This document shows positions 1,646 through 36,994 of a DNA stretch of 64,000 nt, one piece after another. The position numbers and the translations under genes were made by a program. Under the pieces are notes generated by a model. That model had not been told where the DNA came from and ran no database searches. It worked only from the letters and a program-made list of their open reading frames with translations. This DNA comes from Candidatus Poribacteria bacterium (lineage in GTDB: Bacteria > Poribacteria > WGA-4E > PCPOR2b), in assembly GCA_965208325.1 (NCBI GenBank), contig OZ242326.1:2880001-2944000 (forward strand), given 5' to 3'. The first letter of the stretch is position 1; each line of letters begins with the position of its first letter.

Positions 1646-1726
1646 GGGCGGCGCGGAACAGGGAATACAGGAGCGTGAAACCCATGGATAGGTTTCCCCT
1701 TTTTTCTACCCTATTCCGCGCCATAG
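1646..1726 (-). repeat. Member of the TATGRC...GYCRCC stem-loop family
   Basis: Minus strand ATGGCGCGGAATAGGG...CCCTGTTCCGCGCCGCCC long stem, directly before the RBS of 1334-1618. Confidence 0.7.
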
Positions 1727-1793
1727 GTTGCTTTCCAATAAAATTCAAATGTGCGAACGCGGCGTTTGCAGTGCTTACACCGCGCAGCCCGTT

Positions 1794-2216
1794 TTATAAT
1801 TTTTTTCCGTCGGGAGCGCGCATGTTCTGGGGATTAGGTTTAATGATGCGCTTCTTGCAGTGTTTGCATTTCACAGTCAATTTTCCGAGTTCAGCCCGGA
1901 TACGTTTAAAATTCTCGCTTTCCCGCATTGTAATCATGGACTGAGAACGTCTGAATATCAGCCCGTTCTTGTTTTCTTGAATTAACCTCATTTTGCTGTG
2001 TCGCCTTGCTGAATATGGGATCTCATCTTCAGTAGGCGAAAGTGACGGTTCACCTGGGGTAAATGTTATTGAAGGCGGGCCGTCGACGTGAAAGGTAACC
2101 AGAAATGCGGCAATGGGGCCGCCGTGACCAATTATCATGGATGTCTCTTCTTCGTGCTTCACAGCGATATTACATATATCGACGCGGTTATTAACTTCCA
2201 GCGTAAATTCATTCAT
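1794..2216 (-). CDS. Hypothetical protein
   Basis: 140-aa ORF, GGAGAGG RBS, CxxC near the C-terminus. Confidence 0.55.
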   Translation of the reverse strand: MNEFTLEVNNRVDICNIAVKHEEETSMIIGHGGPIAAFLVTFHVDGPPSITFTPGEPSLSPTEDEIPYSARRHSKMRLIQENKNGLIFRRSQSMITMRESENFKRIRAELGKLTVKCKHCKKRIIKPNPQNMRAPDGKKL

Positions 2217-2359
2217 GTTTCCTCTCCGTTAGAACCTGATGGAAAGTATGTTGCAGAGCCATTGTTTGAATATTTGAGGGTCAAAATCATCGGATTTTCA
2301 AGGCATGTACCCCAAAATTGCCTCCCCCGAGGACGGACCTGGTCCATTGAAAAGGGCTC

Positions 2360-2818
2360 TTAATGTTGATGTGATTCACCCGTGCGGATTTTGTCTTTAT
2401 TCCAAGTATTGACAACACCGTTACCATGTTCATTTATGCCCATGGAAGCAATGGCTTTCGTTTTACCACTAGCAATTACATACCCGCCATGTTCATCATG
2501 ACCAATGTCCACGTTCACTTTAGCGTTAGCGTCCCTTACAGTGATAGCAGGGACAATTCCCGGGTGGGTGATATACGTGGTACCGTAACGAGTACCGCCA
2601 TAAAGCAGCATGCCAGTATCCAAGAGGTGTACGACACCACGATGATAAGTGTATCCATTGACCTGCAAATCCTCGTTGACCGTCAAACGCCCACACTCAA
2701 TCTCTCCGAATTTTTCCTTTTGTGCGGATATGGGCGACAGCAGCATGCCGATAATGGTGAAAATACTGCCTAACGCCATTAGACCTAGCTTGTGCTTCCA
2801 ATTAATCAGGGGTTTCAT
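2360..2818 (-). CDS. Exported hypothetical protein (FGEIECxxLTV family)
   Basis: AAGGAG RBS, N-terminal signal/TM segment, ATGA overlap with the upstream ORF. Confidence 0.7.
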   Translation of the reverse strand: MKPLINWKHKLGLMALGSIFTIIGMLLSPISAQKEKFGEIECGRLTVNEDLQVNGYTYHRGVVHLLDTGMLLYGGTRYGTTYITHPGIVPAITVRDANAKVNVDIGHDEHGGYVIASGKTKAIASMGINEHGNGVVNTWNKDKIRTGESHQH

Positions 2819-3255
2819 TTGGTGTCTCCTTGTTGTTTCGGAACGGTGTCAATCGTCATTTTCAATTTAAGCTTTTCTTTAATACGCTCTAAATAATCAG
2901 CCATCTGATAAACACCATGATACCGCCTCACATACCAGCCGCCTATTTCTACATCACTACGGCGTTTCCGAGGACGAAACACTACTTTAGGTAGAATAGG
3001 CGGAATCCTTGCAATGCCCACTAAGGCGAGCACCTCATGAAATGTCTTATACTCTGTGTTATTTTCAACTATAGTGCCGTCTGCCATTGTGACAACCAAA
3101 TGGCGGTTAGGTTCATCAGACTTTTTGGGGATAGATGATAACCCATTTACAAACTGCATAATGACCTTACCGGTTGGACGCTGCTTCCCATACCTCTCTA
3201 CGGCTTCAGAAATAGTGTCGATCAATTGCTTCCGTTTATTATCAGAGATTGGCAT
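2815..3255 (-). CDS. Hypothetical protein
   Basis: AAGGAAGG RBS before ATG at 3255; translationally coupled to the next ORF. Confidence 0.65.
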   Translation of the reverse strand: MPISDNKRKQLIDTISEAVERYGKQRPTGKVIMQFVNGLSSIPKKSDEPNRHLVVTMADGTIVENNTEYKTFHEVLALVGIARIPPILPKVVFRPRKRRSDVEIGGWYVRRYHGVYQMADYLERIKEKLKLKMTIDTVPKQQGDTK

Positions 3256-3277
3256 AAATCCTTCCTTTTTTGTGGAA

Positions 3278-3305
3278 TTGTCCAATAAGAACCATTAGCG
3301 GACAT
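3278..3305. promoter_or_regulatory. 11-6-11 palindromic site (dif-like or operator), copy 1
   Basis: TTGTCCAATAA-GAACCA-TTAGCGGACAT. Confidence 0.55.
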
Positions 3306-3387
3306 CCCCCGCTCCCCGCCAAAAGTCCAAATTTGCGTTCTTTTATGACGGCTGTATATAGAACTGTTATGTAGGCAGCCAGATACT

Positions 3388-3585
3388 TCAGTCATTCGAC
3401 TGCTTCTTCTTGTTTGTGCTATGCGTTAACCGACGAAGGTATTCGATGTTCATGTCGATACACTTGCGGATAAGCGAGCCAAAGGAAACCCCGGTCGCAT
3501 ACTTTGCTTGTTTTAAGATAGTATCTTGCCGTTCCGTAAGTTGTATCATCACTGTGGACCGTGCGGCATCCTTTTCTCCGTTCAT
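3388..3585 (-). CDS. Ribbon-helix-helix (CopG-like) DNA-binding protein, paralog 1
   Basis: VMIQLTERQDTILKQAKYATGVSFGSLIRKCID pattern; near-identical core to 32013-32198; AAGGAGG RBS. Confidence 0.7.
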   Translation of the reverse strand: MNGEKDAARSTVMIQLTERQDTILKQAKYATGVSFGSLIRKCIDMNIEYLRRLTHSTNKKKQSND

Positions 3586-3619
3586 GGACACTTTTTCTTT
3601 CCTCCTTAAATTTGGCAAA

Positions 3620-3782
3620 GGGTGACGGGGAACGGTCTCCACTGGAGTGTTGTGTCAATGGGAATAATCTACCCGCGCCCCGCCTTATTAAATTTTGGCG
3701 GCGGCAAACAGAACCAAGGAGACGGAATTGCTCAGCGAATCGTACGAACTGTGAGCAACCCAAGAGCTGGTTGTCACCGTAC
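3620..3782 (-). repeat. Tandem pair of stem-loop family members, homologous to 33598-33759
   Basis: Stems at 3620-3688 and 3697-3782; shared linker ATTAA(A/G)TTTTGGCGG..CAAACAGAACCAAGGAGA. Confidence 0.75.
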
Positions 3783-3803
3783 TAGAGATTTTTTGTTTCT
3801 GGT

Positions 3804-6557
3804 TTACTTCACTATTGCCATGCGACGTAGTGATTGATAATCGCCCGATCGCAATTGGTAGAAATACACGCCGCTTGGCACAGTTTCACCGGACTGGTTT
3901 CTGCCGTCCCAATGCGCGGCTTGTGTCTGATTGGCGTAGAAGCCCGCGTCCCGATGCCCCAAATCGAGTTGCCGCACTAGATTGCCCTGGACGTCATAAA
4001 TCGTCAGCGTTACTTTGCCCGCGCGGGAGAGGTGGTACGGAATCCAGGTCTCCGGATTGAACGGGTTGGGGTAGTTTGGCAAGAGCGCGGTCTCTTTCGG
4101 CGTCAAGGCTGCGAGGAGGTGTTTCAGCGTGAGAACGCCGCGCTGGTATTGCGCTGTGTTTTTGCCCGTCAGCTTGGCTTCGGTTAGCCAGTGTTCGACC
4201 ATCACCGGGGACAGGTCTGTAGGCAACTGGACGCGGGCTGCCGGTGCAGCCGGTACGCTGTCTACCGCAGCGGCGACGGCGATAACGTCGTCGATGTCGA
4301 CAACCCCATCCCCGTTGACGTCCGCCGATTCTTTGCCTGTCCGCCCGTAGTGCACTGCGACGTAAACAATGTCTAGACGATCCACGCTTCCGTCGCCGTT
4401 GGCGTCCGCGATAATGGGTGGAGGCTGAGTTTCGGCAACGGCGTGAAAGGTGATTTTCTCCAACAATCCAACGGCGGATGCCTCGACAGAGTTTTTTCCC
4501 GGATTTTGCCCCAACGTCAGGGTAGTCTCCGCTTGCCCGCCGCTATCGGTCATTGCGCTTGTTGCACTGAGCTTGCCGCCGCCCACAGTGACTGTGAAAA
4601 CAATTGGAACCCCTTCAATCGGGACGTGTTTCTCGTCCAGCACTGCCACGACGAACGGGTTTTCAAGCGCTTCGCCGGCGTACGCCCGTTGATCGCTCCC
4701 CGATTGGATGCGAATCCGCGGCGGTGGTCGGCTGTCAAAACCTACCTCAACTCTTCTTTCCTGTAAGGCAGGGATGTGTAGGTAAATTGAGGCGTAACTC
4801 AAGGGGTTTCCCTGCAGATGAACCTCGTCCCCATTACCCAATCCCGTATTGGCTACCAGCGGTGAAATGTCCGAGATGTTGTTGCGCGAAAGGTCCAGGA
4901 TTGTAAGGTCGGTCAACCACGATATTGCCTTGATGTCCGAGATGTTGTTTTCCCAAAGATTCAACCGTCTCAGGTTGGTTGCCGCTTCGAGCCCAGTTAA
5001 ATTGCTGATGTTTGCGTTAGCGGCGTCAAGCATATCATCAAGCGCCGCCATTTCCGCCGGGGCAATGGGTTCACCGGCTGTTTTGTTGAGGGCATTCTCA
5101 ACCGCGGCACGGAGGTTCGGGTCGGGTATATGGATCGGAAGCCCCGCCATGGCGTTGAATGTGACCGTCTGCCCAATTCCAGCGGCGGACACCTCTACCG
5201 TGTTTTGTCCGATATTCGCGCCCAGTGTCAACACGCTCGCTGCACGGCCGCCCCGATCTGCGTGGGCGGACTCCACACTGAGCCTGCCGCCGCCGACGGC
5301 GACAGAGAATCTAACGGCAACCCCCTCAATCGGATTGCCGTTGTGCACATCTCGGACTTCAACGACAAACGGGACGAGTAACGGTGTATCCGGCAAGCCG
5401 TGTTGGTTGTCTCCTGAGACTTTCGTTAACGGCTCTAATTTTTCCGAAAACAACGTAAAGTCTCTCCACGACACATTGCCATCCGTATCAATGGCTTCAA
5501 TGGTAATCGGATGGGTAGTCGGATTAAAAAGGTTCGTGTTTCTGCTGTAAGGTAGGGAATGTGCATGGGGAATAACGCCGTCGTAATCAAAGGCAGCAGT
5601 TTCCTCTTGGTTTCCCCCCAACCCAAAACACGCCTTGACCGAACTGCCGTTGGGACTATCGGGTTGATTAACGTGTAAGATTACCTGGTGAAGTCCGTCA
5701 AAATCATGGAGGCGGGGACTGACAATGATATTACTTGCGAATGCTGAATATGAACGGGGCGAAATGAGTTCTATGGTGGGCGGCTCCCCCGCTTCAATTG
5801 GGGTGCTCTGATTGAAGTAGGTATGAACCGACAAATACACCGCATGGCATTGAGATAACCGCTTCTCATCCCGGGAACTAGGGCCATACGACATTACGTA
5901 GGCACCATCTCGGAAATCGTGGTAAAGTCCAAAGGCGTGTCCCAATTCGTGTGCGATTAGCCACCAATCAAATGCACGCAAGCAAAACGCGAATCCGCCG
6001 CGTTTTGAATATGCGCGGCCTTGACCGCCATCAATATACGCCGTCTCAAGTGTGCCCGGTCGGTCGATGAAAACGAGATAAACGTTCTCATAAAGATTGA
6101 ACGCTTCTTCAATCTCGCCAATTACAACAGGCGTACTGCCAAAGCCTTGTGGATAATGGCTGTCCGGGTATCTCCCGCCGACCTGATTCACTATCGGTTC
6201 ACCGTAAGCGTCCGTTTCAACCCGGAAGGTTTGCCGTCCGTAGCCGTGCGCTTGCATCTGATCGGCAAAAAAGCTTTGTGCGATGCTAAGCTGTTCCTTA
6301 ATTCGTTTCACCACTTGTTCCCGATACGGGCGGTCATTGGGTAAAAAGTAAATTATGCGCACGGTGCGTGTTGTTCCGACATTCAGAGCAAGGGTTTTGG
6401 AGCGGGCATCTGGGTGCGTGCCGCGCTTATGGTACTGATGTCCGGTAAACCCGCAGTAATGAGCTGCCGATTTAGGCGGGGCGGCAAGCGCGGCGGTTAG
6501 GTTAACAAGGCACAAAAGCACCGTGCAAAGCGATAACCGAAAAAATCGGATTTTCAC
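3804..6557 (-). CDS. Secreted zinc metallopeptidase-like protein with Ig-like (Big_1), LRR, dockerin-like and FlgD-Ig/T9SS-like C-terminal domains
   Basis: Signal peptide, HELGHAFGLYH (HExxHxxGxxH), SGDNQ Big_1 repeats, internalin-type LRR, DANGDGSVD dockerin, NYPNPFNPETWIPY. Confidence 0.9.
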   Translation of the reverse strand: MKIRFFRLSLCTVLLCLVNLTAALAAPPKSAAHYCGFTGHQYHKRGTHPDARSKTLALNVGTTRTVRIIYFLPNDRPYREQVVKRIKEQLSIAQSFFADQMQAHGYGRQTFRVETDAYGEPIVNQVGGRYPDSHYPQGFGSTPVVIGEIEEAFNLYENVYLVFIDRPGTLETAYIDGGQGRAYSKRGGFAFCLRAFDWWLIAHELGHAFGLYHDFRDGAYVMSYGPSSRDEKRLSQCHAVYLSVHTYFNQSTPIEAGEPPTIELISPRSYSAFASNIIVSPRLHDFDGLHQVILHVNQPDSPNGSSVKACFGLGGNQEETAAFDYDGVIPHAHSLPYSRNTNLFNPTTHPITIEAIDTDGNVSWRDFTLFSEKLEPLTKVSGDNQHGLPDTPLLVPFVVEVRDVHNGNPIEGVAVRFSVAVGGGRLSVESAHADRGGRAASVLTLGANIGQNTVEVSAAGIGQTVTFNAMAGLPIHIPDPNLRAAVENALNKTAGEPIAPAEMAALDDMLDAANANISNLTGLEAATNLRRLNLWENNISDIKAISWLTDLTILDLSRNNISDISPLVANTGLGNGDEVHLQGNPLSYASIYLHIPALQERRVEVGFDSRPPPRIRIQSGSDQRAYAGEALENPFVVAVLDEKHVPIEGVPIVFTVTVGGGKLSATSAMTDSGGQAETTLTLGQNPGKNSVEASAVGLLEKITFHAVAETQPPPIIADANGDGSVDRLDIVYVAVHYGRTGKESADVNGDGVVDIDDVIAVAAAVDSVPAAPAARVQLPTDLSPVMVEHWLTEAKLTGKNTAQYQRGVLTLKHLLAALTPKETALLPNYPNPFNPETWIPYHLSRAGKVTLTIYDVQGNLVRQLDLGHRDAGFYANQTQAAHWDGRNQSGETVPSGVYFYQLRSGDYQSLRRMAIVK

Positions 6558-6691
6558 CCCTTAGACTCCTGTTTTTGTATGGATTTTGATGGCTATAATA
6601 AAACCTATAATCATTTATACACTGCGGTAGGTGCGGTTAGGAAACCGTAGTGAAAGCGGGGCAAGATGCCCCGCCTACGGGTGTGCTGGCG

Positions 6692-9616: not shown

Positions 9617-9754
9617 TCGACACTCCTTATGTTTGGCTTACGATTTAGTTGAAATGAAGACAGCGGGGGCTGCTTGAAATTACCCCCACAAACTAGGCAT
9701 TGACTTAAACATGCTGAAAACTCTTTCGACGAATCCCGCGTGTTTATTCGACAA

Positions 9755-9895
9755 TCGGCGGATAAACCACCGCACCCGAACCAGAAGGACCCGGCGCGCT
9801 GGACATACCACCAAGACCTCGCTTACCCGAATAGGCGTCCTATTTGACCATTCGGGTATCCGGCGGCAATCTGCGTTAGCCCGGTTGCCGCCATA
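9755..9895 (-). ncRNA. Candidate three-hairpin leader RNA (motif X), homologous to 34381-34524 and partly 32311-32366
   Basis: Conserved TGGTATRTC...CCGG-loop-CGGGTRCG and GGACGCCTATT; stems kept despite sequence change. Confidence 0.5.
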
Positions 9896-9972
9896 CAGAC
9901 AATGTTGTATGCCAGCAATGTGAACGCAATAATTTCCACTGTTGAAGCAAACGTGGGGTTTTCATTGATTTC

Positions 9973-10193
9973 TTAATGCCTCAAGTTTAGCCTTGTTATT
10001 GCACATCTAATCTTTCGGCGCAGTCGCCTCGCGGAATTGCGCCCCGTTTACATTTGCGGCGGTATCGGGGACAAGCGGTTCATCGTCTTCTTGGGTTAGT
10101 ATTTCGCGTGCAATGTCACAACCCGAAAAAAACACAGGGTAACAACACAAAACTGAGTTCTTCGGTAAATTTTTTTTGGTTCCTATGAGTCAC
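9973..10193 (-). pseudogene. Frameshifted small lipoprotein
   Basis: AAGGAG RBS + GTG; SG-CDIAREILTQEDD lies one base out of frame after two homopolymer runs. Confidence 0.4.
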
Positions 10194-10512
10194 TGATGTT
10201 CTCCTTTTTTAGGATTAGCCATAGCCGTTTGAATTCACTCTGTGAGCTTTTTTCAAGATAAAGTCAATTGCTATCAAAGGCACACAATCAAAGCGAGTAA
10301 TGCGATTGCTGGAGGACTTATCTTGATTCCTACCCATATAGAGTTAAATAAGCAATCGCATTTTGATGGATATACCTTGGGCACACGCAATAATTCCAAC
10401 TAACCGGCACCGCGAAGACATGGCACAAGACTGCCAAAGCGGCGGCTATTTTGCATTTCGAGCGAAACACGAACGATAAACGAACAAGCAGCGGCCTCCT
10501 CTCGTCGGCGCG

Positions 10513-11203
10513 AACAGAACCAACTGCCATAAAGTCTATTGATATAAATACAGGGAAATTCTCTCCCTCCTTCCATTCCCCGGCGAAGGGGAGCGGCAGG
10601 CATCACGGAGCCGTAATGTCGCCTCCTGCCGCGGGAAGGGAAATTGGACGCGTCAATCTCTAGAGCCGGACGGATCAGAAAAAGACGATCTGCCTCCCCT
10701 TTAATAGAACAAAAACCGTGCCAATGGTCGGTTTAAGGAGGAGTTCAACTCTGTAGAGACGGATAAATCCAGTGGTAGTCTAGGTTCGATGGATATGCGA
10801 AGCAGCCGGGCGGGCAGTTAGCGTGACAGGGTGCAGGTTGAAAAAGTATCAAAATGAGACTGGCAAGGTGTGCAGAAATAGAGGAAATCGGCGGGGAATC
10901 CTGTAATGACGCGGGATGCGGACGTTTATCTCAAAATAGGACTGAGTCTCATTTTGGGACAAATGAAAGAGGGTTTAAGGACGGATTAGTTCATTCAAAA
11001 AAAAAATTTTAGCACAACTGTTTCAAGTTGTATTTATTTTTCGGTAATTTCTGAGTGATATGCGGTGCGGTTAGGAATCAGAACCTACCGGAATGGGCCG
11101 CGCAGTTTATACAACTTCAATTTCCGATAAAGTGTTGATTGACCAATCTTCAACGCTTACACCTTAATGGGCAAGTATGACTGTCTAAACATTGGGGGTA
11201 AGT
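10513..11203 (-). repeat. ~690-bp non-coding module, copy 1 (terminal motif, enhancer-like sites, sigma54-like promoter, structured leader)
   Basis: Direct repeat of 36300-36994; 10744-10863 is identical to 36530-36649. Confidence 0.9.
10705..10724 (-). promoter_or_regulatory. sigma54-like -24/-12 promoter (imperfect -12)
   Basis: TTGGCACGGTTTTTGT versus consensus TGGCAC-N5-TTGC. Confidence 0.5.
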
Positions 11204-11317: not shown

Positions 11318-13444
11318 TTAATCGGGCAGAATCCTGGAGCAGGGCAGCTGGATGTGGATTGTCATCCCTTTTCCATGTCCGCCGCTTGATGCGCTAATCT
11401 TGCCTCCGATTGCAATCACGAAATTAGCGCTCGAATGCAGCCCCAGTCCCGTGCCCTTCTGTTTGGTGGTATAACCTGGCGTAAAGATTGTCCTGGATTG
11501 GTCGGGGTCTATCCCTATCCCGTTGTCGGTAAAATCGATGCGCAAGGAATCCGCATCACTGTGCGCTCGAATTCGGATAAAGGGCATCTCGTTCAATTCC
11601 CCCAATTTCGCGAGCTCATCGATGGCTTCAATCGAGTTCTTGACCATATTGACTATCATCTGATGAAACTGGCTCTCCTGTATCCGAATCTCATCGATCG
11701 CTCCTTCACAGTCTATCTCAATCTCTATGCCGCGCTTTTCGATAGAGTGCTGCAATACATTGATAGCCGATGAAAGTGCTTCGGCAAGATGGATATCTTT
11801 GCGGTTATCGCGGGCGTCGCCATGCGACTTCTGCGTCCGGATGATGTCCACGATATGATTGGTACGGTTCCGAATACGCTCGACCCTCCGCTTCAAGTCG
11901 GCGTCAACCTCGTGCAAGTCGGTTGCCAACCCCTTAATGAAGGGTAAAACTTTTAGGCCTTGCGGGTGATTGGTGACATACTCACCCAAATCTTCTCGAT
12001 GCGCTTCGAGTGCGTTGGCGAGGGCAGTGAGCCGGGTTGAAAGTTTGTCGCTGGCAAGCATTTCGTAGACGGTATCAGTGCCGACTGCGACACTGTTGAT
12101 GGCATTGCCGATATTGTGCAAGATGGTATCGACGACCTCCAACCGCCCCTGTGCGAACGCTTGATTCAAATGTTCGGCGGCACGCACTTTATCCGTTACG
12201 TCGTGGAAAACAACGACTCCTCCTTGTTGTTCACCGCTGTCGTCCCGCAGCGGTCTTCCGCTGACGTTGAGATATGCGCCCTCAGGTATAGAGGGATTTT
12301 GCACAAATATTTCGACGTTATTTGTTGATTCACCGCGGATGGCGCGGGTCAGCGGAAGCTCATCGGTCGGGAACGGCGTTTCCTTGTCCATATAATACAT
12401 CCCGTATTTTTGCGTCCAGTCGTTGATGGGGACTTCAAGCTGCGGTCCGCCAGCTATCTGTTCGGCCCGCGGATTGAACATGGTCAAATTGCCGTTTTTA
12501 TCGGCAACGACTATGCCGTCACTGATGTTGTTAAAGACCGATTCCAGGAGTTGAGTTTGGCGTTCAAGTTCAGCGATCGAGTTTTTCAGCCGTTCCTCGG
12601 TCTGCTTGAGTTGCGTGATGTCGCGTATTACGGCAACTGCGCTTACCACATGTCCCTTCTTGTTCAATATGGGGCGTGCGCTGATACTCACGTGGATGCC
12701 TTCCGGCTGTGTCTCATTCCGCAACAACATCTCAATGTTATCGGTGTTTTCCCCCAGTAACGCCAACGCAAGCGGAAGTTTGTTTACGGGGAACTCCGAC
12801 TCCCCGTCCGGTTGAAACAGACCAATCTGCCGAGGCGCATCCTTGGTATGTTTGCCGCGCAGTTTCTTTGCCCCCATCTCGTCAGCTCGTTTGTTGAAGA
12901 ACACATATTTTCCGTAATCGTCTGCGACAATCACGCCGTCGCTGATGCTGTTGAAAACGGTATCTAACAACCTTGACTGCCTTTGCTGGTTAGCCCTCGA
13001 TTCATCGAGTTGGGCTTGTATGGTTTTCAACTCGGTGATGTCGCGCAACACAATCACTCCTCCAATCAGTTCACCCGAAGAATCGTGCAACGGCCGCCCA
13101 CTCACGTTGATAAAAACGCCGTCAGGTCTCTGCTCATTGCGAATGAACAGTTCGATGTTGTTTGTAACCTCGCCGTGCATGGCTCGCATCAATGGAAGAT
13201 TCTCGTTGGGAACGGGTGTCATCTTATCGGGATAGAATGTGCCGTAAATTTCACTCCATTCGTGTGGAGAATCTTCGGTCGGCCCCATGCCGACAATGCC
13301 GACCGCGGTCGGATTGGCAAGCCAAAATTCACCCGCCGTGCTGGTCGCGACAACTCCCTCACTGAGGCTATCGAAAATGGTTTGCATCTGTTCTAGCTGC
13401 TCTCGCAGTTGCTTGTTTTCAGCTTCTAATTCCGTGATAGTCAT
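11318..13444 (-). CDS. Cytoplasmic sensor histidine kinase with three PAS domains
   Basis: Three FNSISDGVIVAD-type PAS repeats; H box ILHNIGN; N, DNGIG, F and GTGLGL boxes. Confidence 0.92.
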   Translation of the reverse strand: MTITELEAENKQLREQLEQMQTIFDSLSEGVVATSTAGEFWLANPTAVGIVGMGPTEDSPHEWSEIYGTFYPDKMTPVPNENLPLMRAMHGEVTNNIELFIRNEQRPDGVFINVSGRPLHDSSGELIGGVIVLRDITELKTIQAQLDESRANQQRQSRLLDTVFNSISDGVIVADDYGKYVFFNKRADEMGAKKLRGKHTKDAPRQIGLFQPDGESEFPVNKLPLALALLGENTDNIEMLLRNETQPEGIHVSISARPILNKKGHVVSAVAVIRDITQLKQTEERLKNSIAELERQTQLLESVFNNISDGIVVADKNGNLTMFNPRAEQIAGGPQLEVPINDWTQKYGMYYMDKETPFPTDELPLTRAIRGESTNNVEIFVQNPSIPEGAYLNVSGRPLRDDSGEQQGGVVVFHDVTDKVRAAEHLNQAFAQGRLEVVDTILHNIGNAINSVAVGTDTVYEMLASDKLSTRLTALANALEAHREDLGEYVTNHPQGLKVLPFIKGLATDLHEVDADLKRRVERIRNRTNHIVDIIRTQKSHGDARDNRKDIHLAEALSSAINVLQHSIEKRGIEIEIDCEGAIDEIRIQESQFHQMIVNMVKNSIEAIDELAKLGELNEMPFIRIRAHSDADSLRIDFTDNGIGIDPDQSRTIFTPGYTTKQKGTGLGLHSSANFVIAIGGKISASSGGHGKGMTIHIQLPCSRILPD

Positions 13445-13894: not shown

Positions 13895-14121
13895 CGGTGA
13901 TAGCGCCTAGTGCGTCCGTCTTGGGAATAATTTGCTAGGGTCGCATATCCAATACTGCCGAAAAGCAACGTGTCTGCTCATTATCCAATTTGTTGTAGTC
14001 ATTTCGGTTCATATTTACACAGAGAGGAAACGACTGATTGATAATCGAGGTTAGGAATCCTCTCCCACAAACCAATAATAAAAGCATAATTTTTAGTCGT
14101 AATGACTGTAAATTCAAAGTG

Positions 14122-14250
14122 AGCAATGCGTAAAATCTAATGCGTAATGCGTAATGAGTAATGCGTAATGCGTAATGAGTAATGAGTAATGAGTAATGAG
14201 TAATGCGTAAAATGTAATACGTAAAATGTAATGCATAGAGGGTAATGCGG
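14122..14250. repeat. Heptamer tandem repeat (GTAATGC/GTAATGA)n
   Basis: Visible tandem array; shorter tracts near 21710-21760, 23648-23686, 24545-24597, 27615-27645 and 29300-29332. Confidence 0.9.
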
Positions 14251-14320: not shown

Positions 14321-14324
14321 CTTG

Positions 14325-22474: not shown

Positions 22475-22585
22475 TTTTTTCAGCGGAAAAATGGTGAGGG
22501 GGCGAGCCCTTTTTGGGCGAAAAAGCCCCGGTTAGTGTTTTGCCCGCGCCCAGCCCTTTAGAAGCGCGTATCTATCGACGAGTAT

Positions 22586-23491: not shown

Positions 23492-24002
23492 GGTTCGAAA
23501 ATCTCCTTTCTGTTTTGAGCGCATCAAGTTATTGACGGCGCTAGATTGTAATTCTACTTGACTTTAAATTACCAGTAACCGAATGTCTTCTCCCTATGTG
23601 TCAATACTCGATCGAGGGTAACGAGAGCATCAGTCCTAACCGGTGCGGCGTAATGAGTAATGCGTAATACGTATTGCGTAATGAGTCTTTGTAGGTTGGG
23701 TTGAGCGGTGTAGACAACAAGGATTTCAATCCGTCGCGTGCGTTACGCGGTTTGATTTCGTTCGAATACATGATTGACCGAGCGTAACGTAACGCTTTTC
23801 GTATAGTCATATCGGTTCATATTTACGCGAGGAGGAATCGACCGATTAATTATCAAGGCTAGGAAGCCTATCCTACAAACCAATAGTAAAGGAATATTTT
23901 TAGATATAAAGACTATCGCCATCGCTATTCGCTCAGTCGATCGCTCAACCCAACCTACAAATACTGTTCGCCGGCAGGAGTTAGTCGAAATAGTCGAAAT
24001 CG

Positions 24003-24266
24003 CTAGGTCGAACTTCCGAAGCTAACCAATACAAAGACAAGAAAAACTCCGACGATGAATCCGAATTCGTACCACCGGCCGTTGTTGTTTAATTCGTAGA
24101 TGCCCACGTCTGTGAAGATGCTGGCGATTAAGGTGAAGACGCAAATCAAGCCGTGCCAAACTCCGCTGAAAAAGCCGGCGCGTTCGTAAGGAGTAGCGTC
24201 GCCGGGGAAACAGCTTGAGAATACAAACACAACGAGAAGTAGGGTTACCAATCTTAGGTATTTCAT
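24003..24266 (-). CDS. Small membrane lipoprotein
   Basis: Lipobox FSS-C, AGFFSGVWHG and YELNNNGRWYEFGF; the upstream ORF extension is REP-derived. Confidence 0.65.
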   Translation of the reverse strand: MKYLRLVTLLLVVFVFSSCFPGDATPYERAGFFSGVWHGLICVFTLIASIFTDVGIYELNNNGRWYEFGFIVGVFLVFVLVSFGSST

Positions 24267-25235
24267 GATTCCGCCTTTACTTTCTTCGCGTAAGGTTATC
24301 AGCTTTTGTAGGTTGGGGTAAGCGGTGTAGACAACAAAACATCGTAATGCCGCGTGGGTTACATGGTTTGATTGCGTTAAAAAATTTGATTGACGGAGCG
24401 TAACCCTACGGTTCTTGTAATAGCTATGTCGGTTGATATTTACACATTGGGGAAGCGACTGATCGATAATCGAGGCTAGGAAGCCTGTCCCACAAACCAA
24501 TAGGCATCTGTAATGTTTTTTGTCGCAATGACCGTAAATTCAAAGTGAGTAATGAGTAAACGTAATGTGTAAAGCGTAATTAGTAATGCGTAATGAGCTT
24601 CTGCAGGTTGGGTTGAGTGGTGTAAACTACAAAAATCTCATAGTACCCGGTTTATTCGGTGTTATCCGCTTAACCCAACCTACAAAAACTGATTCTCTGA
24701 AGAAATAGCCCGCATTTCCGTGTCAAATTTCCAGCTGGATTTTCGCGGGTGTTTTTTTGCCCCCTCTAGCTCCCCCTTGTAAAGCTTACTATTACCCACA
24801 TCTTAATGGAGGGTGCTAGAATCTGCGCACAACCCAACCTATAACCTCCCCTAACCCCGCCTTAGTAAGGAGGGGAATGATTATTGTAATGAGTCGACAA
24901 GGCGTTCTCACTGTAGGAGAGGCATCCCTGCCTCGACAATCGGCAGAAGGATTTCCCGCCCACAGCGTGGCTCCGTGCGAATTTCTGGACTTGTGGGTAA
25001 TAGTAAGCTTGTGAAGGGGGAGAATTTTTTTTTGCCTCTTGTCGGTTCAGCGGTTCTGGAGGTGAAGACTTGAAGACTATCGACCTCCCTATTCGGTCGG
25101 TTGATCCTTCGCTATCCGCTCGGTTGATCCCAACCTAAAGAAATTCCAAGTTGAGTCGGGAGGAACCCCTCCCGAACTTCGGAAAGAGACCGAGTTTTGC
25201 AGAAAAAACTCGGTCTCTCTTGCCAATCTTGCAGT

Positions 25236-27883: not shown

Positions 27884-27953
27884 GGCGACGGGCTTTTGCT
27901 GGCGGAAAGGATGGGGTGCTGTAAACCCCAAAAAGCGCCAGCTGCCCGTCATT
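27884..27953 (-). repeat. Stem-loop family member
   Basis: Minus strand ATGACGGGCAGCTGGCG...CGCCAGCAAAAGCCCGTCGCC. Confidence 0.7.
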
Positions 27954-29298: not shown

Positions 29299-30170
29299 AG
29301 TGAGTAATGAGTAAAACGTAATGCTTAATGAGTTTTTGTAGGTTGGTTTGAACGGAGTAGACTATAAGAATATAAATGCGTCGCGTGTTTTATGCGGTTC
29401 GATTGCGTTAGAAAATTTGAATAATGGAGCGTGACTCAAAGCATTTAGTTATGGTCATTTCGGCTCATACTTGAATACGGAGGAATTGACTAATTTATAA
29501 TCGAGGCTAGGAAGCCTCTCCCACTGTAATTACCCCCTCTAGCTCCCCCTTGTAAAGGGGGAGAATTTTTTTGTCTCTTTTTGATACAGCGGTTCTTGAG
29601 GGGAAGGTTCGAAGACTCGAAGGCTTAGGGACTATCGTCTTCGCTGTCCGTTCAGTTGATGCCAACCTACAAAAACGGTTAACCCTCCGAGTCCATAGCC
29701 TGATTGCATTGATAAGCCTACGCGGCTAGTACCGCGAAAACCAAAAACGAGTAAGCAACTAATACAACACAGCATAGTAACTTCATTGGTGATTTCCTTA
29801 TCTCTTGTTTAACTCGTGAATTCGGACGAATCAGTGCAGTCGGCGAATTATGAACAGGAATTAGGTAAATTCCACCGAATGCGGTGGCTAATATGAGTGC
29901 GAGATATATCCATTCAAGCATTTTTCAATCCGATCTGAGTAGCGACAGCGAGTGCAGTTTTTGTAGGTTTAGATCAGCGGTGTAGACAATGCGCCGCGTG
30001 CGTTACATGGTTTGACTGCGTTAGGAAATAAGATTAATGGAGTGTAACCAACCTACAAAATTTGAAAAAGACTATCGCTAATCGCTCAGTTGATCCTAAC
30101 CTACAACAGCCTACCTACCTTTCAGTTGGCGTTTCATCGCAAAATAGGCCGTTACCCCTAAGTGTCAAGC

Positions 30171-30361
30171 GGGAGGCAGACACGCACTTACTGGAGGAAA
30201 GGCTTGGGATTCCAAAAGACCCCAGCCTATTCTTTTTAACGTGTCTGCCATAAGGTTAATTTCTATTTTGGATTTTGTAGGTATATCAAGGGTGACGGGG
30301 CGGGAGATGCGCTAACACGCAGAATTTCGTCAACACTGGCGCCCCCGCTTCCCGTCATAAG
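30171..30361 (-). repeat. Two tandem stem-loop family members with no ORF between them
   Basis: 30171-30255 (GGCAGACACG/CGTGTCTGCC) and 30290-30361 (TGACGGG/CCCGTCA), both ending CATAAG. Confidence 0.75.
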
Positions 30362-30442
30362 ATGAATCATTCAGCGCCGCTGATTACTATTCACGTCGGA
30401 GTATTCACCCTAACGCACTAATCGCTGGCGGCAAAAGCCGTT

Positions 30443-31657: not shown

Positions 31658-31854
31658 TGGGTGACTTTCCTTTGTTTGGATTTTTGGGTTATAGGTTTTA
31701 CGCCTTCAATACGTTTTAGGAAGTCCTCAACCTCATGGTGGGTTGGACGGCGTCCGCAGAGACGTTTGGCTGCGTCCGCGATGGTATCTAACAACTCATC
31801 CTCTTCGATTAGTTTTTGCGTTTCGCCGCGGAAATCTTCAGGAGAATCGCGCAT
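31654..31854 (-). CDS. Small hypothetical protein
   Basis: AAGGAAG RBS before ATG at 31854; ATGA overlap with the downstream gene. Confidence 0.55.
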   Translation of the reverse strand: MRDSPEDFRGETQKLIEEDELLDTIADAAKRLCGRRPTHHEVEDFLKRIEGVKPITQKSKQRKVTQ

Positions 31855-31915
31855 TGTTCTTCCTTTCACCACGCATGTAACGCCGTCAGTCGGCGTAATT
31901 GAATTTTGCAATAAA

Positions 31916-31991
31916 GGCGACGGGTGCAGGAATACTCTGATACAGAGTAAATCCGCAGGATTGGACCTTTTTTCCCGCGCCCCGTCATAAG
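31916..31991 (-). repeat. Stem-loop family member
   Basis: GGCGACGGGTGCAGGAA...TTCCCGCGCCCCGTCATAAG. Confidence 0.75.
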
Positions 31992-32012
31992 ACAACCATA
32001 TATGTGCAAGGC

Positions 32013-32198
32013 TTAATCCTTCTCCTTCGCGTTAATAGTCAACCGGCGAAGGTACTCAATATTCATGTCGATACACTTCCGAATAAGCGAGCCAAACGAA
32101 ACTCCGGTCGCGTTCTTGGCTTCTTTCAAGATAATTTCCTGCCGTTCCGTAAGGCGAATCATCACGTGGGATTGGGTGTCCTCTTTGTCGTTGTTCAT
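32013..32198 (-). CDS. Ribbon-helix-helix (CopG-like) protein, paralog 2
   Basis: Core near-identical to 3388-3585; preceded by stem-loop 32233-32302, similar to 3620-3688. Confidence 0.7.
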   Translation of the reverse strand: MNNDKEDTQSHVMIRLTERQEIILKEAKNATGVSFGSLIRKCIDMNIEYLRRLTINAKEKD

Positions 32199-32392
32199 GG
32201 ACACGTTATAGTACCCCCTTTCTTTTAACCATGAGCGACAGGGAACGGATTGACACAAGAGAGTTGGGGCAATGAAAAGTGCTTTACCCGCGCCCCGTCA
32301 TGCGTTGTTCGTCGGTAGAAAAACCGCACCCGGACCACGCTGACCGGGTTTGATAGACATACCACCTAAATTGCCGTGCTGCTATTAGTAGG

Positions 32393-33565
32393 TTATTCAA
32401 AGAATTCCAATTGACCATCGGCGACAATCAATATTTTCGGCTCGTAAACCGCATCCCCGACGGCGTCAAAAGAGAACTTACCGAAGACAGTGTCGAAATC
32501 CGCGATATTTGCCAATGCGTCACGAATTGCGGTTGCGTCAGTGGATTCGGCGTTGGCAACGGCTTCCGCCAGAACATGGAGCGTGGTGTAAGACCGCGCC
32601 GCGGAATTACTCGGCTCCACGCCGAATTTGGCGCGATAGTTCTGGACAAAGGCAGCATTTCCCGGTGTGTCGGCTGTGCTTACCCACCCGACGAAAGTAA
32701 TCGCCCCCTCGGCAGCCGCACCCGCTGCACGTACGTCAGCTATGGTCAAGGTTCGCATAACAAACGGCACCGAGTCGGGTATACCGAGTTGGCGCCGTTG
32801 GGTCAGAATTCCCGGTTTTTCCGGCGATAAAGAGGAGACAAAGATAATATCGGGATTTGCGTCCCTTATCCGAGATAATTGTTCGCTAAAGTCGGTGTCG
32901 CCGCCTTGAAACGTTGCTGTAACCAATACCTCGACGCCCTTCGCGGCAAGCGATTCCCTCACCGCCGCATCGCTATCCGTAGAGAAGACATCGCTTTCAT
33001 CGTACATCGTAGCGGCTTTTTGATAGCCGAGTTTTGCGTAAGTCGCCTCAATACCGCTTGGAATCAGCACGTCTGTGGTGAGAGAGACACGAAATGCATA
33101 ATCGCCAATCGCGCTGAGACCGCGTCCGGCGGATGTTGGGCTAAACGCCACCACCTGATTCTCTTGCGCAATCGGGAACACGACTTCTGCCTGACCCGAC
33201 GTGGCGGGACCGAGAATAACGGATATGCCATCCTGTTGAATCAGTTTATTGAATGCTTCAACCGCACCCTCAATGGTGCTTCGATCATCCTCTACGATAA
33301 ACTTGATGCTTCTCTCTCCGAGTTTTGAGTTGTTAATCTCTTCGAGAGCAAGTTCATAGCCGTTGACCGTGGGTTCCCCAAATGTAGAGGTAAGCCGTCC
33401 CGTAATGGGTAGCACAACACCGATGGGAATCTCTACACTCACATCTTCCATATCAGGCGGCGCGGGGAGGAGTAGTTGCCCAATCTGGTCACAAGCGGAA
33501 AGCCCAATTATGAAGAGGACTATCGCCGGTACAAACGAAAATGCTGTAATTCTTCCGATATACAT
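32393..33565 (-). CDS. LivJ/K-type ABC substrate-binding lipoprotein
   Basis: LSA-C lipobox, IGVVLPITG, GDTDFSEQL; likely start ATG at 33565. Confidence 0.9.
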   Translation of the reverse strand: MYIGRITAFSFVPAIVLFIIGLSACDQIGQLLLPAPPDMEDVSVEIPIGVVLPITGRLTSTFGEPTVNGYELALEEINNSKLGERSIKFIVEDDRSTIEGAVEAFNKLIQQDGISVILGPATSGQAEVVFPIAQENQVVAFSPTSAGRGLSAIGDYAFRVSLTTDVLIPSGIEATYAKLGYQKAATMYDESDVFSTDSDAAVRESLAAKGVEVLVTATFQGGDTDFSEQLSRIRDANPDIIFVSSLSPEKPGILTQRRQLGIPDSVPFVMRTLTIADVRAAGAAAEGAITFVGWVSTADTPGNAAFVQNYRAKFGVEPSNSAARSYTTLHVLAEAVANAESTDATAIRDALANIADFDTVFGKFSFDAVGDAVYEPKILIVADGQLEFFE

Positions 33566-33597
33566 TTTGACATCCGTTGTTTTGAAATGAAAAATTT

Positions 33598-33759
33598 GGG
33601 CAGACGGGACACGAATTGACATAGGAGTTTCGTTTCCATGGGACAATTTATCCGCACCCCGCCATATTAAGTTTTGGCGGTGACAAACAGAACCAAGGAG
33701 ATTGTATTATCCACAGCACTTACAAACTATGAGCAACACAAAAACTGTTTGCCACCATA
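33598..33759 (-). repeat. Tandem pair of stem-loops, homologous to 3620-3782
   Basis: Stems at 33598-33667 and 33676-33759. Confidence 0.75.
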
Positions 33760-33766
33760 CGAGAGA

Positions 33767-34351
33767 TTACTGCGATTCTGCCAACGCAATCACACCGCAG
33801 CCGATTCGCGCGCCGGCAGCCCCTGAGGGCTGGGACGTAAAGTCGTCGGCGCCGGCATGGACGATTATGCCTTTTCCGACAACGTCGCGGATGGAACCGG
33901 TACCGATTTCCCAAAGGTCTGTCGCCAATTCGATTTTGCCGGTGCCGTCCTCGCCAACCATTATATTGCCAATGTCTCCGAGATGAAATTCGCCCTCACC
34001 CCATTTGCCGTGGGAGGTGTTCGTCGGATTCCAGTGCCCGCCTGCCGATGTCCCGTCCGGTGCGCTGCAATCACCGTATTCGTGGATATGAACTGCGCGG
34101 AGCCCTGGTTCCGCGTTCTGAATCTCAATGGTCAGCGCGATTGTGTCTCCGATTTGTTCGAAAACCGCCGTACCGGTTACATTGCTTCCGCTTGTCGAAC
34201 CTATCGATGCGTGTGCCTGTTCTGACGGCGGCGGCGGCAAAAGGTCAGCCAAATCCTGTACCGCATCACAACTCAGAAAAGCAATCGAAACGGCAATCAC
34301 CAGTGACAGCATTAAGGCTTGTCTTCCAAACACGTTAACCCCTTTTTTCAT
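33767..34351 (-). CDS. sodC: Cu/Zn superoxide dismutase (lipoprotein)
   Basis: HIHEYGDC, AGGHWNP, HLGDIGN, IIVHAGADD, GARIGCG; AAGGAG RBS before ATG at 34351. Confidence 0.93.
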   Translation of the reverse strand: MKKGVNVFGRQALMLSLVIAVSIAFLSCDAVQDLADLLPPPPSEQAHASIGSTSGSNVTGTAVFEQIGDTIALTIEIQNAEPGLRAVHIHEYGDCSAPDGTSAGGHWNPTNTSHGKWGEGEFHLGDIGNIMVGEDGTGKIELATDLWEIGTGSIRDVVGKGIIVHAGADDFTSQPSGAAGARIGCGVIALAESQ

Positions 34352-34380
34352 CGTTAACTCCTTTCGCTTTACTCCATCAA

Positions 34381-34524
34381 ATGGTAGAAAACGTACCCGA
34401 GCTACGCCGCCCGGCTGCGCTCGATATACCACTAAACTCGGGACTATTCTTGCCCAAATAGGCGTCCTGTACGCCTATTCGGTTACTCGACGACTACCGG
34501 GGTTAACCCGGCTCTCGCCATAAG
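34381..34524 (-). ncRNA. Candidate leader RNA motif X, second full copy
   Basis: Homologous to 9755-9895; immediately 5' of sodC. Confidence 0.5.
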
Positions 34525-34655
34525 GTGGCGGGGAATTACTGCGATGGGAAAGGAAGGGTATTTCAGCCCCAATTAAAACCATCGCAGCCGCCCGTCATAA
34601 CGGGTTATCTGTTTACTTTGCCATTCACGATTTTCACAATCGCCTAAGCACCGCA

Positions 34656-34943
34656 TCAAGCTTTACCGCTGGAATTTGCTCTGTCCACTCGTTCAAATTC
34701 GCAACTAAGGCTATCCATAACAAGCGTAAGTACATGTCCGTCCTGCCAATGCGATAAGCAATTGACGAGCGTGTATAAAAAGTGTCTGGCATCTTCGGGT
34801 TTCGTTCCGACAGGCAATCGTATTTGACTAGTTCCAAGGTATAAATCTAATTTAAATAACCGAATCGACTTGATATTGTCCGCATTGATAAACCATATTT
34901 TGTCATCGTTGGCATTACAAGGGACAATGTAAATCCATCTCAT
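34656..34943 (-). CDS. Small hypothetical protein
   Basis: 95-aa ORF bracketed by two stem-loops; GAAGG RBS. Confidence 0.55.
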   Translation of the reverse strand: MRWIYIVPCNANDDKIWFINADNIKSIRLFKLDLYLGTSQIRLPVGTKPEDARHFLYTLVNCLSHWQDGHVLTLVMDSLSCEFERVDRANSSGKA

Positions 34944-35407
34944 GGGCTATTACCTTCGTTCGTAATAAGGCGGCGGGGACAGGAGCAGTGTTAGTTGTTC
35001 TATCGATTGGCTAGATTCCCCCACTCCCGTCATAAGCAAAACAGTTACGTTAAAAGGCGGCAGGCAACAGGGATAAGGAAGAATACGTTAGGCGATCGCA
35101 CATAACGCCTAATCATCAAAAAACCCTGCCGCCCGCCATAAAAACTTGACTTGCTTTCATTTTGCGTTTCACCGTCCGCGGCACAACCGGCGGTTGCGTC
35201 CGTATCCGCAAAATGTGCAAAGTCCCTTTCGCCCGCTGTGCGCGCCACTGAATAATTCAAGTGTATCCATGCCGAACTGCGGGCAATATGTTGGGACTTT
35301 TTTCAGACTGGGTATTTTTTAGTTTTTTTTTGTGTCTATATTCGTAACAAAACGCCTTTCGCGCCAGACATAAGAGCGTATTGGTTTAGATGTTCGTTAA
35401 AATCAAT

Positions 35408-35497
35408 CTAGAGGAGATGCTCTAGCATGAAAGTAACAACGCCAGCAAGTAATCCAATAATGAAAAAATAAAGGAGTAGAAAACCAAAATTGAACAT
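35408..35497 (-). CDS. 29-aa hydrophobic micropeptide
   Basis: GGAGG RBS; MFNFGFLLLYFFIIGLLAGVVTFMLEHLL. Confidence 0.5.
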   Translation of the reverse strand: MFNFGFLLLYFFIIGLLAGVVTFMLEHLL

Positions 35498-35845
35498 TGT
35501 TTCACCTCCATTTGCCGAAATAAGTGAGGGGGCAAGTGCGGGGGTGGTCGGTGTCCCGTTGATAAACATAGGAGCGCGCTTCACGTCATGAGTTGATACA
35601 TAGAGCATCGCAATCAGTGCCGCCCGCCAAACAACCGTGCCAAGCAATCAGTATGTGTTTCACCTAAGGCGGATTGATAGAAAGGGTGACGAGGGCGAGC
35701 GTTTGCGTTACACTCTGAAATCCATCGACAAATGAGTCCCCCGCCCCGTCTTAAGACCTCTGTCAGTATTGTTAATCCGACCGGTCTTGACGATCTCAGC
35801 GATACTTTATTCTCCGATTGAAGACAATGGTCTCTATCAGGAAAT

Positions 35846-36205
35846 CTATCCAACTTCCGCGTGGGCAGACCAAGTGCTAAATGATTCTCCTGATGCATCA
35901 AGCTTGATGTTCATCTTTTCACCCGGCGGCAAGGGCAAGTAGCTTGGCATAGTTGGGCCTAGTTCTGTGCCATTTGACAGATGGACTTCAACTCTAACGC
36001 GTTGCAGTGTACTGCTGGTGGTATTTTCTACCGTACCAACAAACGCCCTTGTTGCGGCATCGTAGTTGAGTATTAACCTTGCACCGCTTCGTACATCATC
36101 ATAAGTGTCGCCTTTGGCAAGCATTTGTAACGATTCTTCGTCCTCTACCGTGCCGCAAGCGAGGATAGCGATCAGCACCGTGAGTAAAACAATGTTGAAT
36201 TTCAT
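35846..36205 (-). CDS. Small lipoprotein with Ig-like (FxLYD-like) domain
   Basis: ILA-C lipobox; GTVENTT..TL.RVRVEVHL..G. Confidence 0.75.
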   Translation of the reverse strand: MKFNIVLLTVLIAILACGTVEDEESLQMLAKGDTYDDVRSGARLILNYDAATRAFVGTVENTTSSTLQRVRVEVHLSNGTELGPTMPSYLPLPPGEKMNIKLDASGESFSTWSAHAEVG

Positions 36206-36299
36206 TTGATTGTCCTTTTTTGTAATTTAAGCATACAAATTCAACTGGGGCGGAAAGGTATTATGTAGCCTACCATTTAGCTATTGCATCATGCCCTAA

Positions 36300-36994
36300 A
36301 ACAGAAGCAACCGCCATAAGGTCAATTTAAATAAAATATAGGGAATTCCCTTCCCTCCTTCTATTCCTCGGCGAGAGGGAGCGGCAGGCATCACGGAGCC
36401 GTGATGTCGCCTCCTGCTGCGGGAAGGAAAATTGGATGCGTCAATCTCTTGGACCGGCCGGATCAGAGAAAGACGAATTGGCTCTCATAGTATGGCACAA
36501 ACCGTGCCAACGGTCGGACCAAGGAAGGGTTCAACTCTGTAGAGACGGATAAATCCAGTGGTAGTCTAGGTTCGATGGATATGCGAAGCAGCCGGGCGGG
36601 CAGTTAGCGTGACAGGGTGCAGGTTGAAAAAGTATCAAAATGAGACTGGAAAGGCGTGCAAAAATAGAGGAATTCGGCGGGGAATCCTGTAATGACGCGG
36701 GATGCGGGCGTTTATCTCAAAATAGGACTGAGTCTCATTTTGGGACAAATGTAAGAGGGTTTAAGGGCGGACTATTTCATTCAAAAAAAATATCGTTTTT
36801 TTGGCACAACTTTTTCAAGTTTTATTTATTTTCCGGTAATTTCTGAGTCATGTGCGGCGCGGTTAGGAAACTGAATCTACCGGAATGGGCCGCGCAGTTT
36901 ATACAACTTCAATTTCCGATAAAGTGTTGATTGACCAATCTTCAATGCTTACACCGTAATGGACTAGTATGACTGTCTAACATTGGGGGTAAGT
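36300..36994 (-). repeat. ~690-bp non-coding module, copy 2
   Basis: Direct repeat of 10513-11203. Confidence 0.9.
36493..36509 (-). promoter_or_regulatory. sigma54-like -24/-12 promoter
   Basis: TGGCACGGTTTGTGC (GG-N10-GC) on the minus strand; also reads TGGCACAAACCGTGC on the plus strand. Confidence 0.6.

Follow-up and report, generated by a model that had tools for sequence, protein, structure and literature searches.

Antisense C4 RNA, known from phages P1 and P7 (Rfam RF01695) and from the Group 1 small RNAs (sRNAs) of Acinetobacter baumannii, which occur in multiple copies, is a molecule of about 77 nt that is cut by RNase P and whose two loops pair with the target, partly covering its ribosome-binding site (PMC5320573; further background in PMC2864571). 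Another family of mobile sRNAs, sRNA-Xcc1 (RF02221), occurs as five clustered sXF RNAs in a genomic island of Xylella (PMC12189769) and is carried in integron cassettes (bioRxiv 10.1101/2025.06.18.660453), so that arrays as such have a precedent. Bacterial RNase P itself recognizes U(-1), A(-2), G(+1) and an RCC that pairs with GGU in L15; the enzyme is inhibited when the leader pairs with RCCA, which acts as an anti-determinant, and in pre-4.5S RNA and C4 RNA a continuous helix stands in place of the T arm (PMC4919922, PMC10731613). Here we describe some twenty co-oriented hairpin elements found in 64,000 nt of DNA from a Candidatus Poribacteria bacterium (the window: contig OZ242326.1 of assembly GCA_965208325.1, positions 2,880,001-2,944,000 of the forward strand; its 4.7-Mb genome is called G000 below). 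The hairpins belong together as a genuine family of structured RNAs whose ends are of the RNase P type and, as far as their sequence tells, they are built like C4 without being members of the C4 family.

An initial annotation of the window had listed 19 positions as co-oriented stem-loops of mostly 70-90 bp with conserved ends, (U)UAUGRC...GYCRCC in the gene direction. All 19 proved to be inverted repeats on the minus strand, which is that of the genes, and the size had to be corrected, the span from G+1 to C72 being mostly 60-79 nt and the positions 9862 and 34488 corresponding to 31-nt hairpins without a 3' RCC (Table 1). The consensus of the window elements reads (C)UUAU/G-R-C-G-G...C-C-G-Y-C/R-C-C, with slashes before G+1 and after C72. 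The ends are conserved as claimed, with A-2 in 18 of the 19 copies, U-3 and C74 in 16, U-1 and C75 in 15, R73 in 14 and A76 in 2; these counts are descriptive and carry no test, since the boundaries were chosen by a score favouring these same letters. Pairing also stops at a common outer limit, the helix ending at U(-1):R73. That the stem-loops are structured holds for 11 of the 17 copies folded, with z ≤ -2 against shuffles (those listed at 1646, 3620, 27884, 30171, 30290, 31916, 32233, 33676, 34524, 35056 and 35684), and not for the other six. Many interiors differ, but they are not all unrelated, as 3697 resembles 33676, 3620 resembles 32233 and 33598, and 9862 resembles 34488. Likewise, some copies do lie just after a stop codon, but over 87 copies the nearest upstream end of an open reading frame (ORF) is 4-1425 nt away. 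The reported lack of U-tails was borne out, a four-U run 3' of the stem, as in an intrinsic terminator, being present in 1/19 window copies and 3/65 copies of the wider family described below, and a scan of the window found no family-type copy past 36.3 kb (judged by eye); the initial annotation had seen none in the housekeeping part. A degenerate copy (10441-10528) and a 0.69-kb leader duplicated ahead of both arrays had been missed. In a genome-wide search with a profile trained on the window copies, eight of these occupied the first ranks and no second cluster appeared within the top 45; this ranking carries the training bias, and the top ranks alone were used because loose thresholds gave no separation (898 matches in the real genome versus 1252 in the reversed one). 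At gathering score, Rfam recognized only a TPP riboswitch in the window, with no meaningful E-value match on the elements, and ARAGORN found no tRNA gene inside the window's genome coordinates.

The ends of the elements coincide with the determinants of RNase P, namely U(-1), A(-2), G(+1):C72 and an unpaired R73-C74-C75, more weakly so in the window copies, and G000 encodes a type A RNase P RNA with GGGU at L15, together with RnpA. Two roles had been proposed in the initial annotation, a single-stranded DNA (ssDNA) recombination site and an mRNA element processed at UUAU/G. The second is the better of the two, its ends matching both the RNase P determinants and those of C4, and cleavage of the elements by RNase P appears probable. 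They share with pre-4.5S RNA, pre-tmRNA and the hisCD hairpin (PMC10731613) a helix that replaces the T arm, U(-1)/G(+1) and RCC; whereas these are single housekeeping RNAs or sites, the elements number up to about 20 per island.

The family extends beyond the window. A strict end pattern had matches, clustered and in tandem, in 28 of 41 related genomes; across the phylum it matched in 40 of 151 genomes, with clustered structured copies in two genera alone (g1, that of the window, and g5; judged by eye) and single matches near the control rate. In GTDB, a stricter pattern gave 40 matches, 24 of them titled Candidatus Poribacteria, and the outer stem reached at least 11 bp in 24/24 of these versus 4/16 of the others. 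A scan of 31 loci for stems only yielded 630 candidates, among which all six flank letters were found in 65, with 0.6 expected; these 65 copies (54 from g5 and 11 from g1; one doubtful and one mis-bounded, both left out of the target tests) constitute our family set. When the search started from the flanks, in 30 loci preselected by leader or pattern matches, 47 of 285 CTTATG sites had a C-R-C-C partner together with 6/6 further pairs, versus 0-3 of 186-371 sites in eight controls. A76, which was not selected for, is present in 47 of the 65 copies, that is in 44/54 from g5 and 3/11 from g1. In orientation, 58 of the 65 copies agree with the nearest long ORF, and as the clusters are found on either strand of the genomes, block polarity is an unlikely cause.

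Several features of the family speak of a molecule acting as RNA. Wobbles in the outer stem are biased to the transcript strand (26 G·U versus 4 A·C), which argues for an RNA rather than a DNA role, and the sense strand folds better than the antisense in 30 of 39 unique copies. Pairs 2:71, 3:70 and 4:69 alternate between G-C and A-U types, among candidates selected for pairing. Within an 11-member subfamily, double changes occur in 5 of 23 pairs, four of these five columns lying in the core of inner stems, chiefly that of a hairpin closed by a UUCG-type loop; such subfamily-specific inner structure is retained across several genomes. Tandem copies with no intervening gene are spaced by 10 nt in 7 of 8 pairs, so that the hairpins themselves look like products. 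As to the interiors, CTCCT occurs in 12 of 39 unique ones versus 2.3 in shuffles, and AGGAG in none of the 39; the most frequent unpaired 5-mers are TCCTT (10/41) and CTCCT (8/41), for a 95th percentile of the shuffled maximum of 7, and the anti-Shine-Dalgarno (anti-SD) sequence UCUCCUU is the leading unpaired motif of the family.

A few observations accompany this survey. The 31-nt hairpins of the window (9862-9892 and 34489-34519) represent a subclass also seen in L027, L029 and L063, which has the 5' end motif without RCC and usually stands right behind a full element. One structured copy of a g5 subfamily lies in a genome from another family of the order (G087:C47:34673-34750), through transfer or binning error, and G050 holds another repeat, in six near-identical copies, which also fits the end pattern. 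A CRISPR-like split repeat was ruled out, single copies holding both arms, as was a MITE with TTA duplication, the 3' TTA not being conserved.

Structure conserved while sequence varies, between co-oriented genes, is also the hallmark of attC sites. The elements differ from these by the lack of the AAC/GTT R boxes (RYYYAAC...GTTRRRY in 0/19 window and 0/65 family copies), by the absence of an IntI in G000 (best score 41 bits for a cut-off of 265, in a genome 95.6% complete), by the wobble bias to the transcript strand and by the many copies that are not at gene ends, and the proposal of an attC-type site is not supported. The nearest match to a tyrosine recombinase, a short remnant, lies some 55 kb off, no recombinase family turned up repeatedly in the 60 ORF clusters of widest distribution at the loci, and neither a phage integrase nor a transposase was found among 80 neighbouring small proteins compared with PHROGs. 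One point in favour of a DNA role is that hairpins sit at gene-order breakpoints. Gene order is shuffled between islands, synteny breaks at the 5' foot of several hairpins (3682/32297, 9895 and 35036/35132) and at the 3' foot of one (27884), and among 94 related pairs of elements, which are not independent, 10 share the downstream flank only and 3 the upstream flank only. These facts could suit ssDNA recombination sites, attC-like or HUH-like, with a crossover at the 5' foot and a cassette made of the hairpin and the downstream gene. We consider this very improbable: neither flank is common to 67 of the 94 pairs, most breakpoints of island L027 of genome G002 lie away from hairpins, several of them at a second repeat class, homology between the conserved arms can yield such breaks without a dedicated enzyme, and the ends are fully accounted for by RNase P and C4. 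Among the 13 joints listed for four contig sets of a single study, none was at a hairpin foot, with the limit that contigs drop rare forms. L027 is a second island of G002, in which homologues of genes scattered over the window (41.5 kb, 2.4-2.8, 22.6-23.4 and 0.9-1.3 kb) are reordered.

The comparison with C4 brings out both the likeness and its limits. The consensus ends of RF01695, uuuuAu/GGcgGg...cCcgCC/aCC, correspond to the C4-type consensus UUAU/GG...CC/RCC that is present in the elements along with a closed 70-90-nt multi-stem fold, and the end pattern, when run over viral contigs, retrieved a true C4 locus (76 bits). The outer stem reached at least 11 bp in 16 of the 120 viral matches, and the Rfam scan of pattern matches took in 12 of 16 viral and 2 of 4 genome ones. 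Besides their ends and a size near 77 nt, C4 and the elements share a long closing stem without T loop, inner hairpins, a UUCCU-type loop, co-orientation in a longer transcript and the ability to stand several in a row (three in L132). In contrast to C4, the elements have no model match (the RF01695 covariance model found nothing at E ≤ 1 in 25 genomes, with at most 114 candidates scored per genome, and RF03163 was over cut-off in 0/25) and no a1b1/a2b2 cis targets; each array holds many unrelated interior types and head-to-tail tandems, and a sigma54-type leader takes the place of the phage immunity promoter. C4 is linked to icd/ant-type immunity genes, and none of these was found among the 80 neighbouring proteins in PHROGs. 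The consensus of sRNA-Xcc1 likewise starts at G and closes with C-RCC, and these sRNAs too belong to mobile elements and cluster in islands, but the sXF copies are highly conserved in sequence (PMC12189769) whereas the interiors of the elements are diverse. AS-traG (RF02874) shows the same closure in one weak alignment (E 4); the RF02221 and RF02874 models each had no match at E ≤ 1 in five genomes. Our literature search, with most subscription journals outside its reach, found no earlier description of the element family, nor of arrays in which the interiors are unrelated, cis targets are lacking and a sigma54-type leader stands in front.

Other RNAs with related ends came to light along the way. 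L132 carries, at 543-1587, three successive C4 modules, which have individual a/b specificities and, both upstream and downstream, targets of their own. An RNA in L153 (306-390) scores 43 bits for sRNA-Xcc1 and 19 bits for C4 and stands between both families, and L124, L136, L154 and L207 hold RNAs, of phage or genome origin, that have these ends and a long stem but match no Rfam family.

Both arrays of the window start behind the 0.69-kb leader, of which a third copy lies at G000:3648146; some part of the leader was matched in 23 of the 41 genomes searched, in many through short repeats only. Within the family set, 53 of the 65 copies follow a leader on their own strand, 1 is on the opposite strand, and 11 have no leader in the DNA fetched. 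Alignment of 20 leaders showed an invariant TTGGCAC and, ten bases after the GG, a -12 GC at least 90% conserved, a box which, from the sigma54 consensus, we take to be a -24/-12 promoter. Palindromic sites lie upstream of it and a conserved structured RNA downstream. G000 encodes RpoN, and a gene for a sigma54 activator (homologue of a REC-PAS-sigma54-activator protein) lies at most 1.5 kb ahead of 20 of 41 promoter matches, three of which share one gene; a PAS kinase precedes 2 of the 41, leader copy 2 of the window among them. The islands contain small ORFs, lipoproteins, periplasmic binding proteins, Cu/Zn SOD and large proteins with FlgD tails. The leader RNA shows little covariation (double changes in 2 of 27 pairs) and no Rfam match, and might itself serve as an attenuator, antiterminator or riboswitch. 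This highly conserved structure of about 110 nt (36340-36430 and 10552-10640, minus strand) is also present in multiple copies in G032, a genome that gave no match to the strict element pattern. Just upstream of leader copy 1, an HTH protein (37228-38007, minus strand; adjoined by a 47-aa gene fragment) matches terminase small-subunit PHROGs (E 3e-20), which hints at a mobile origin.

In the reading that we prefer, the elements would be genes for 60-95-nt sRNAs built like C4 antisense RNA. Judging from the neighbouring genes and promoter, an enhancer-binding two-component system would activate the sigma54 promoter of the leader, and the island would be read as one or a few long RNAs. Folding and covariation indicate that the ends of each element, once folded, mimic a tRNA acceptor stem; from the published determinants, host RNase P would bind the unpaired RCC, cut U/G(+1) and free a protected 5' end, and 3' trimming to RCC(A) would then leave a stable sRNA. 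In the least supported step, the inner loops, often with UCUCCUU, would pair in trans with the ribosome-binding sites of other mRNAs and block translation. Taken as a whole, this chain, in which RNase P releases C4-like, trans-acting antisense RNAs, is a tentative proposal that falls a little short of an even chance. A broader version, a signal-controlled bank of guide RNAs resembling a microRNA cluster, seems rather unlikely to hold in full: a two-component system would fire the sigma54 promoter, the conserved leader RNA would take the polymerase across an island of 10-45 kb, and RNase P of the host would release up to about 20 RNAs with nothing in common but a tRNA-like chassis, their loops differing and directed to ribosome-binding sites elsewhere in the genome, the chassis having come from phage C4-type RNAs, been freed of cis targets, and been diversified and shuffled with small genes in a sponge symbiont.

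The search for targets established none and gave leads at best. The longest matches of elements in the genome are of 12-18 nt, those of 18 nt joining paralogous elements, and no long local antisense match was found except for decayed copies. The element at 30175-30249 is complementary, along 14 nt, to a sequence covering the ribosome-binding site of an 825-aa ORF (G000:3557870) which, by eye, looks like a TonB-dependent receptor. A genome-wide two-site search at start regions gave p ≤ 0.025 for 4 of 14 elements, after removal of one self-match (27884), and is a lead only, being based on 40 shuffles and crude gene calls with no correction. Pairing of the loops with the leader showed no clear peak past purine-rich SD-like stretches.

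A number of results weigh against the release of trans-acting RNAs. The elements show no excess of pairing with the start region that follows them (mean rank 0.48, n=48), start regions of the own island are matched no more than the genome background, and three family-specific anti-SD patterns, followed in five genomes each, led to no shared target gene. C4-type two-site cis targets within 300 nt were seen for 2 of 47 unique elements versus 21 of 529 in the background, in a test that found both targets for 3/3 C4 RNAs used as positive control. The anti-SD motif is present in under half of the elements, six of the 17 folds are no better than shuffles (3697, 33598, 34969, 36247, 22493 and 35526), and A76 is mostly lost in the window's genus (2/19 in the window, 3/11 in g1). 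Finally, the leader CUUAU is conserved far beyond what is seen in the tRNA genes of G000 (UAU in 4/49). The leader is no different in C4, which RNase P is known to cut; yet conservation of this degree, with C-5 in 55 and U-4 in 58 of the 65 family copies, beyond the need of a tRNA leader, could be a sign of another enzyme. The elements would then be read at CUUAU/G by a different nuclease or an RNA-binding protein, or be tRNA-like decoys acting via the CCA ends found in g5; with no candidate nuclease recurring at the loci and a discriminator that is A or G within one subfamily, unlike a synthetase identity element, such an explanation is improbable.

RNase P cleavage could also serve in cis, as punctuation or stabilization, the cut at G+1 splitting the island transcript and leaving each downstream message capped by a strong 5' stem with no regulator released; hairpin cleavage has been proposed to stabilize part of the his mRNA (PMC10731613). 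Of 48 element-start pairs, 11 have the element 26-32 nt before the start codon (one start inside the next element being excluded), shared flanks are more often downstream than upstream, as given above, and the genus of the window retains RCC and not A76, all of which would suit a role in cis. Such a role alone seems unlikely, if not strikingly so, in view of the tandem pairs and triples with no intervening gene, the inner structure kept by subfamilies across genomes, the anti-SD enrichment without pairing to the adjacent gene and the full CCA in most g5 copies. If it alone holds, the elements would still provide dozens of natural sites for RNase P outside tRNAs. The decayed window copies (22501, 35531 and 10441), the lack of cis targets and the losses between G000 and G002 could instead suggest that the elements are largely non-functional, decaying remnants of C4-type immunity modules brought by mobile elements. 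We find this hard to reconcile with compensatory changes in both outer and inner stems, with subfamilies kept across several genomes and with the lack of icd/ant-like neighbours, and give it little credence.

If the trans-acting reading is true, the routine work of RNase P in a bacterium would extend beyond tRNAs and a few special substrates to the maturation of entire arrays of regulatory RNAs unrelated to one another. Poribacteria would thereby gain a first candidate for a system of post-transcriptional regulation, in which every copy has an exact, testable cut site (G+1). C4, sRNA-Xcc1 and the elements would share an end-defined design that covariance models miss when the interior changes, so that a simple search for ends plus stem could find more.

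Table 1. Elements, leaders and associated features in window coordinates (z, fold compared with shuffles)
Feature	Position	Strand	z, basis or relation
Leader copy 1: palindromic upstream sites, sigma54-type promoter, structured 5' RNA	36300..36994	-	89% identity to 10513-11203; homologues in relatives
Sigma54-type -24/-12 box, GG-N10-GC	36495..36510	-	20 aligned leaders
Structured leader RNA: three-way junction, 6-nt AGGCGA bulge, then weak terminator-like hairpin	36340..36430	-	no Rfam match
Element immediately 3' of leader, weak fold, 3' CCAG	36249..36315	-	z +0.26
Element	35688..35750	-	z -2.11
Decayed element; boundary from intact orthologue in G002 (L029 3367-3422)	35531..35587	-	z +1.23
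Element; missing at orthologous site in G002	35059..35137	-	z -4.74
Element; orthologue in L029	34972..35031	-	z -0.38
Element, tandem with short hairpin behind	34527..34596	-	z -3.04
31-nt short hairpin, 5' end motif, without RCC	34489..34519	-	paralogue of 9862-9892
Element with GCCA end, unpaired AUCUCCUU bulge	33679..33756	-	z -4.54
Element, second in tandem pair	33603..33663	-	z -1.41
Element ahead of 63-aa ORF	32237..32299	-	z -2.82
Element, two inner hairpins	31919..31986	-	z -4.17
Element	30294..30356	-	z -2.96
Element; best trans-target candidate (14-nt match over Shine-Dalgarno site, G000:3557870)	30175..30249	-	z -4.48
Element; G002 synteny stops at its 3' foot	27887..27950	-	z -5.15
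Doubtful or decayed element	22501..22555	-	z +0.33
PAS histidine kinase gene directly upstream of leader copy 2	11318..13444	-	
Leader copy 2; sigma54-type box 10724-10709 with GT for GC at -12	10513..11203	-	
Degenerate first element behind leader copy 2; homologue in L027	10441..10528	-	
31-nt short hairpin, paralogue of 34489-34519	9862..9892	-	
Element with GCCA end, paralogue of 33679-33756	3700..3778	-	z -0.62
Element ahead of small ORF paralogous to 32013-32204	3624..3684	-	z -2.75
Element 31 nt upstream of start codon of 94-aa ORF	1650..1722	-	z -5.98

The remaining features of the window concern its small genes, other repeats and a few identifiable loci. Two paralogous ORFs of 63-67 aa (3388-3585 and 32013-32204, minus strand), each right behind an element, resemble ribbon-helix-helix DNA binders by eye and had no match in Pfam or PHROGs. 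The second repeat class mentioned above consists of a short G/C hairpin, a C/A-rich spacer and a strong Shine-Dalgarno site ahead of small genes; it is found in the window at 875-927, 1246-1304 and 41498-41543, at several places in L027 and at several gene-order breakpoints. REP hairpins of the GTAG type and short TAATGCG/TAATGAG tandem repeats, both distinct from the elements, occupy 14100-14230, 23650-25150, 29300-30100 and 38550-40100. A NurA-like and HerA-like gene pair lies at 45384-48180 (minus strand), and the TPP riboswitch stands ahead of thiC at 60600-60710 (minus strand).

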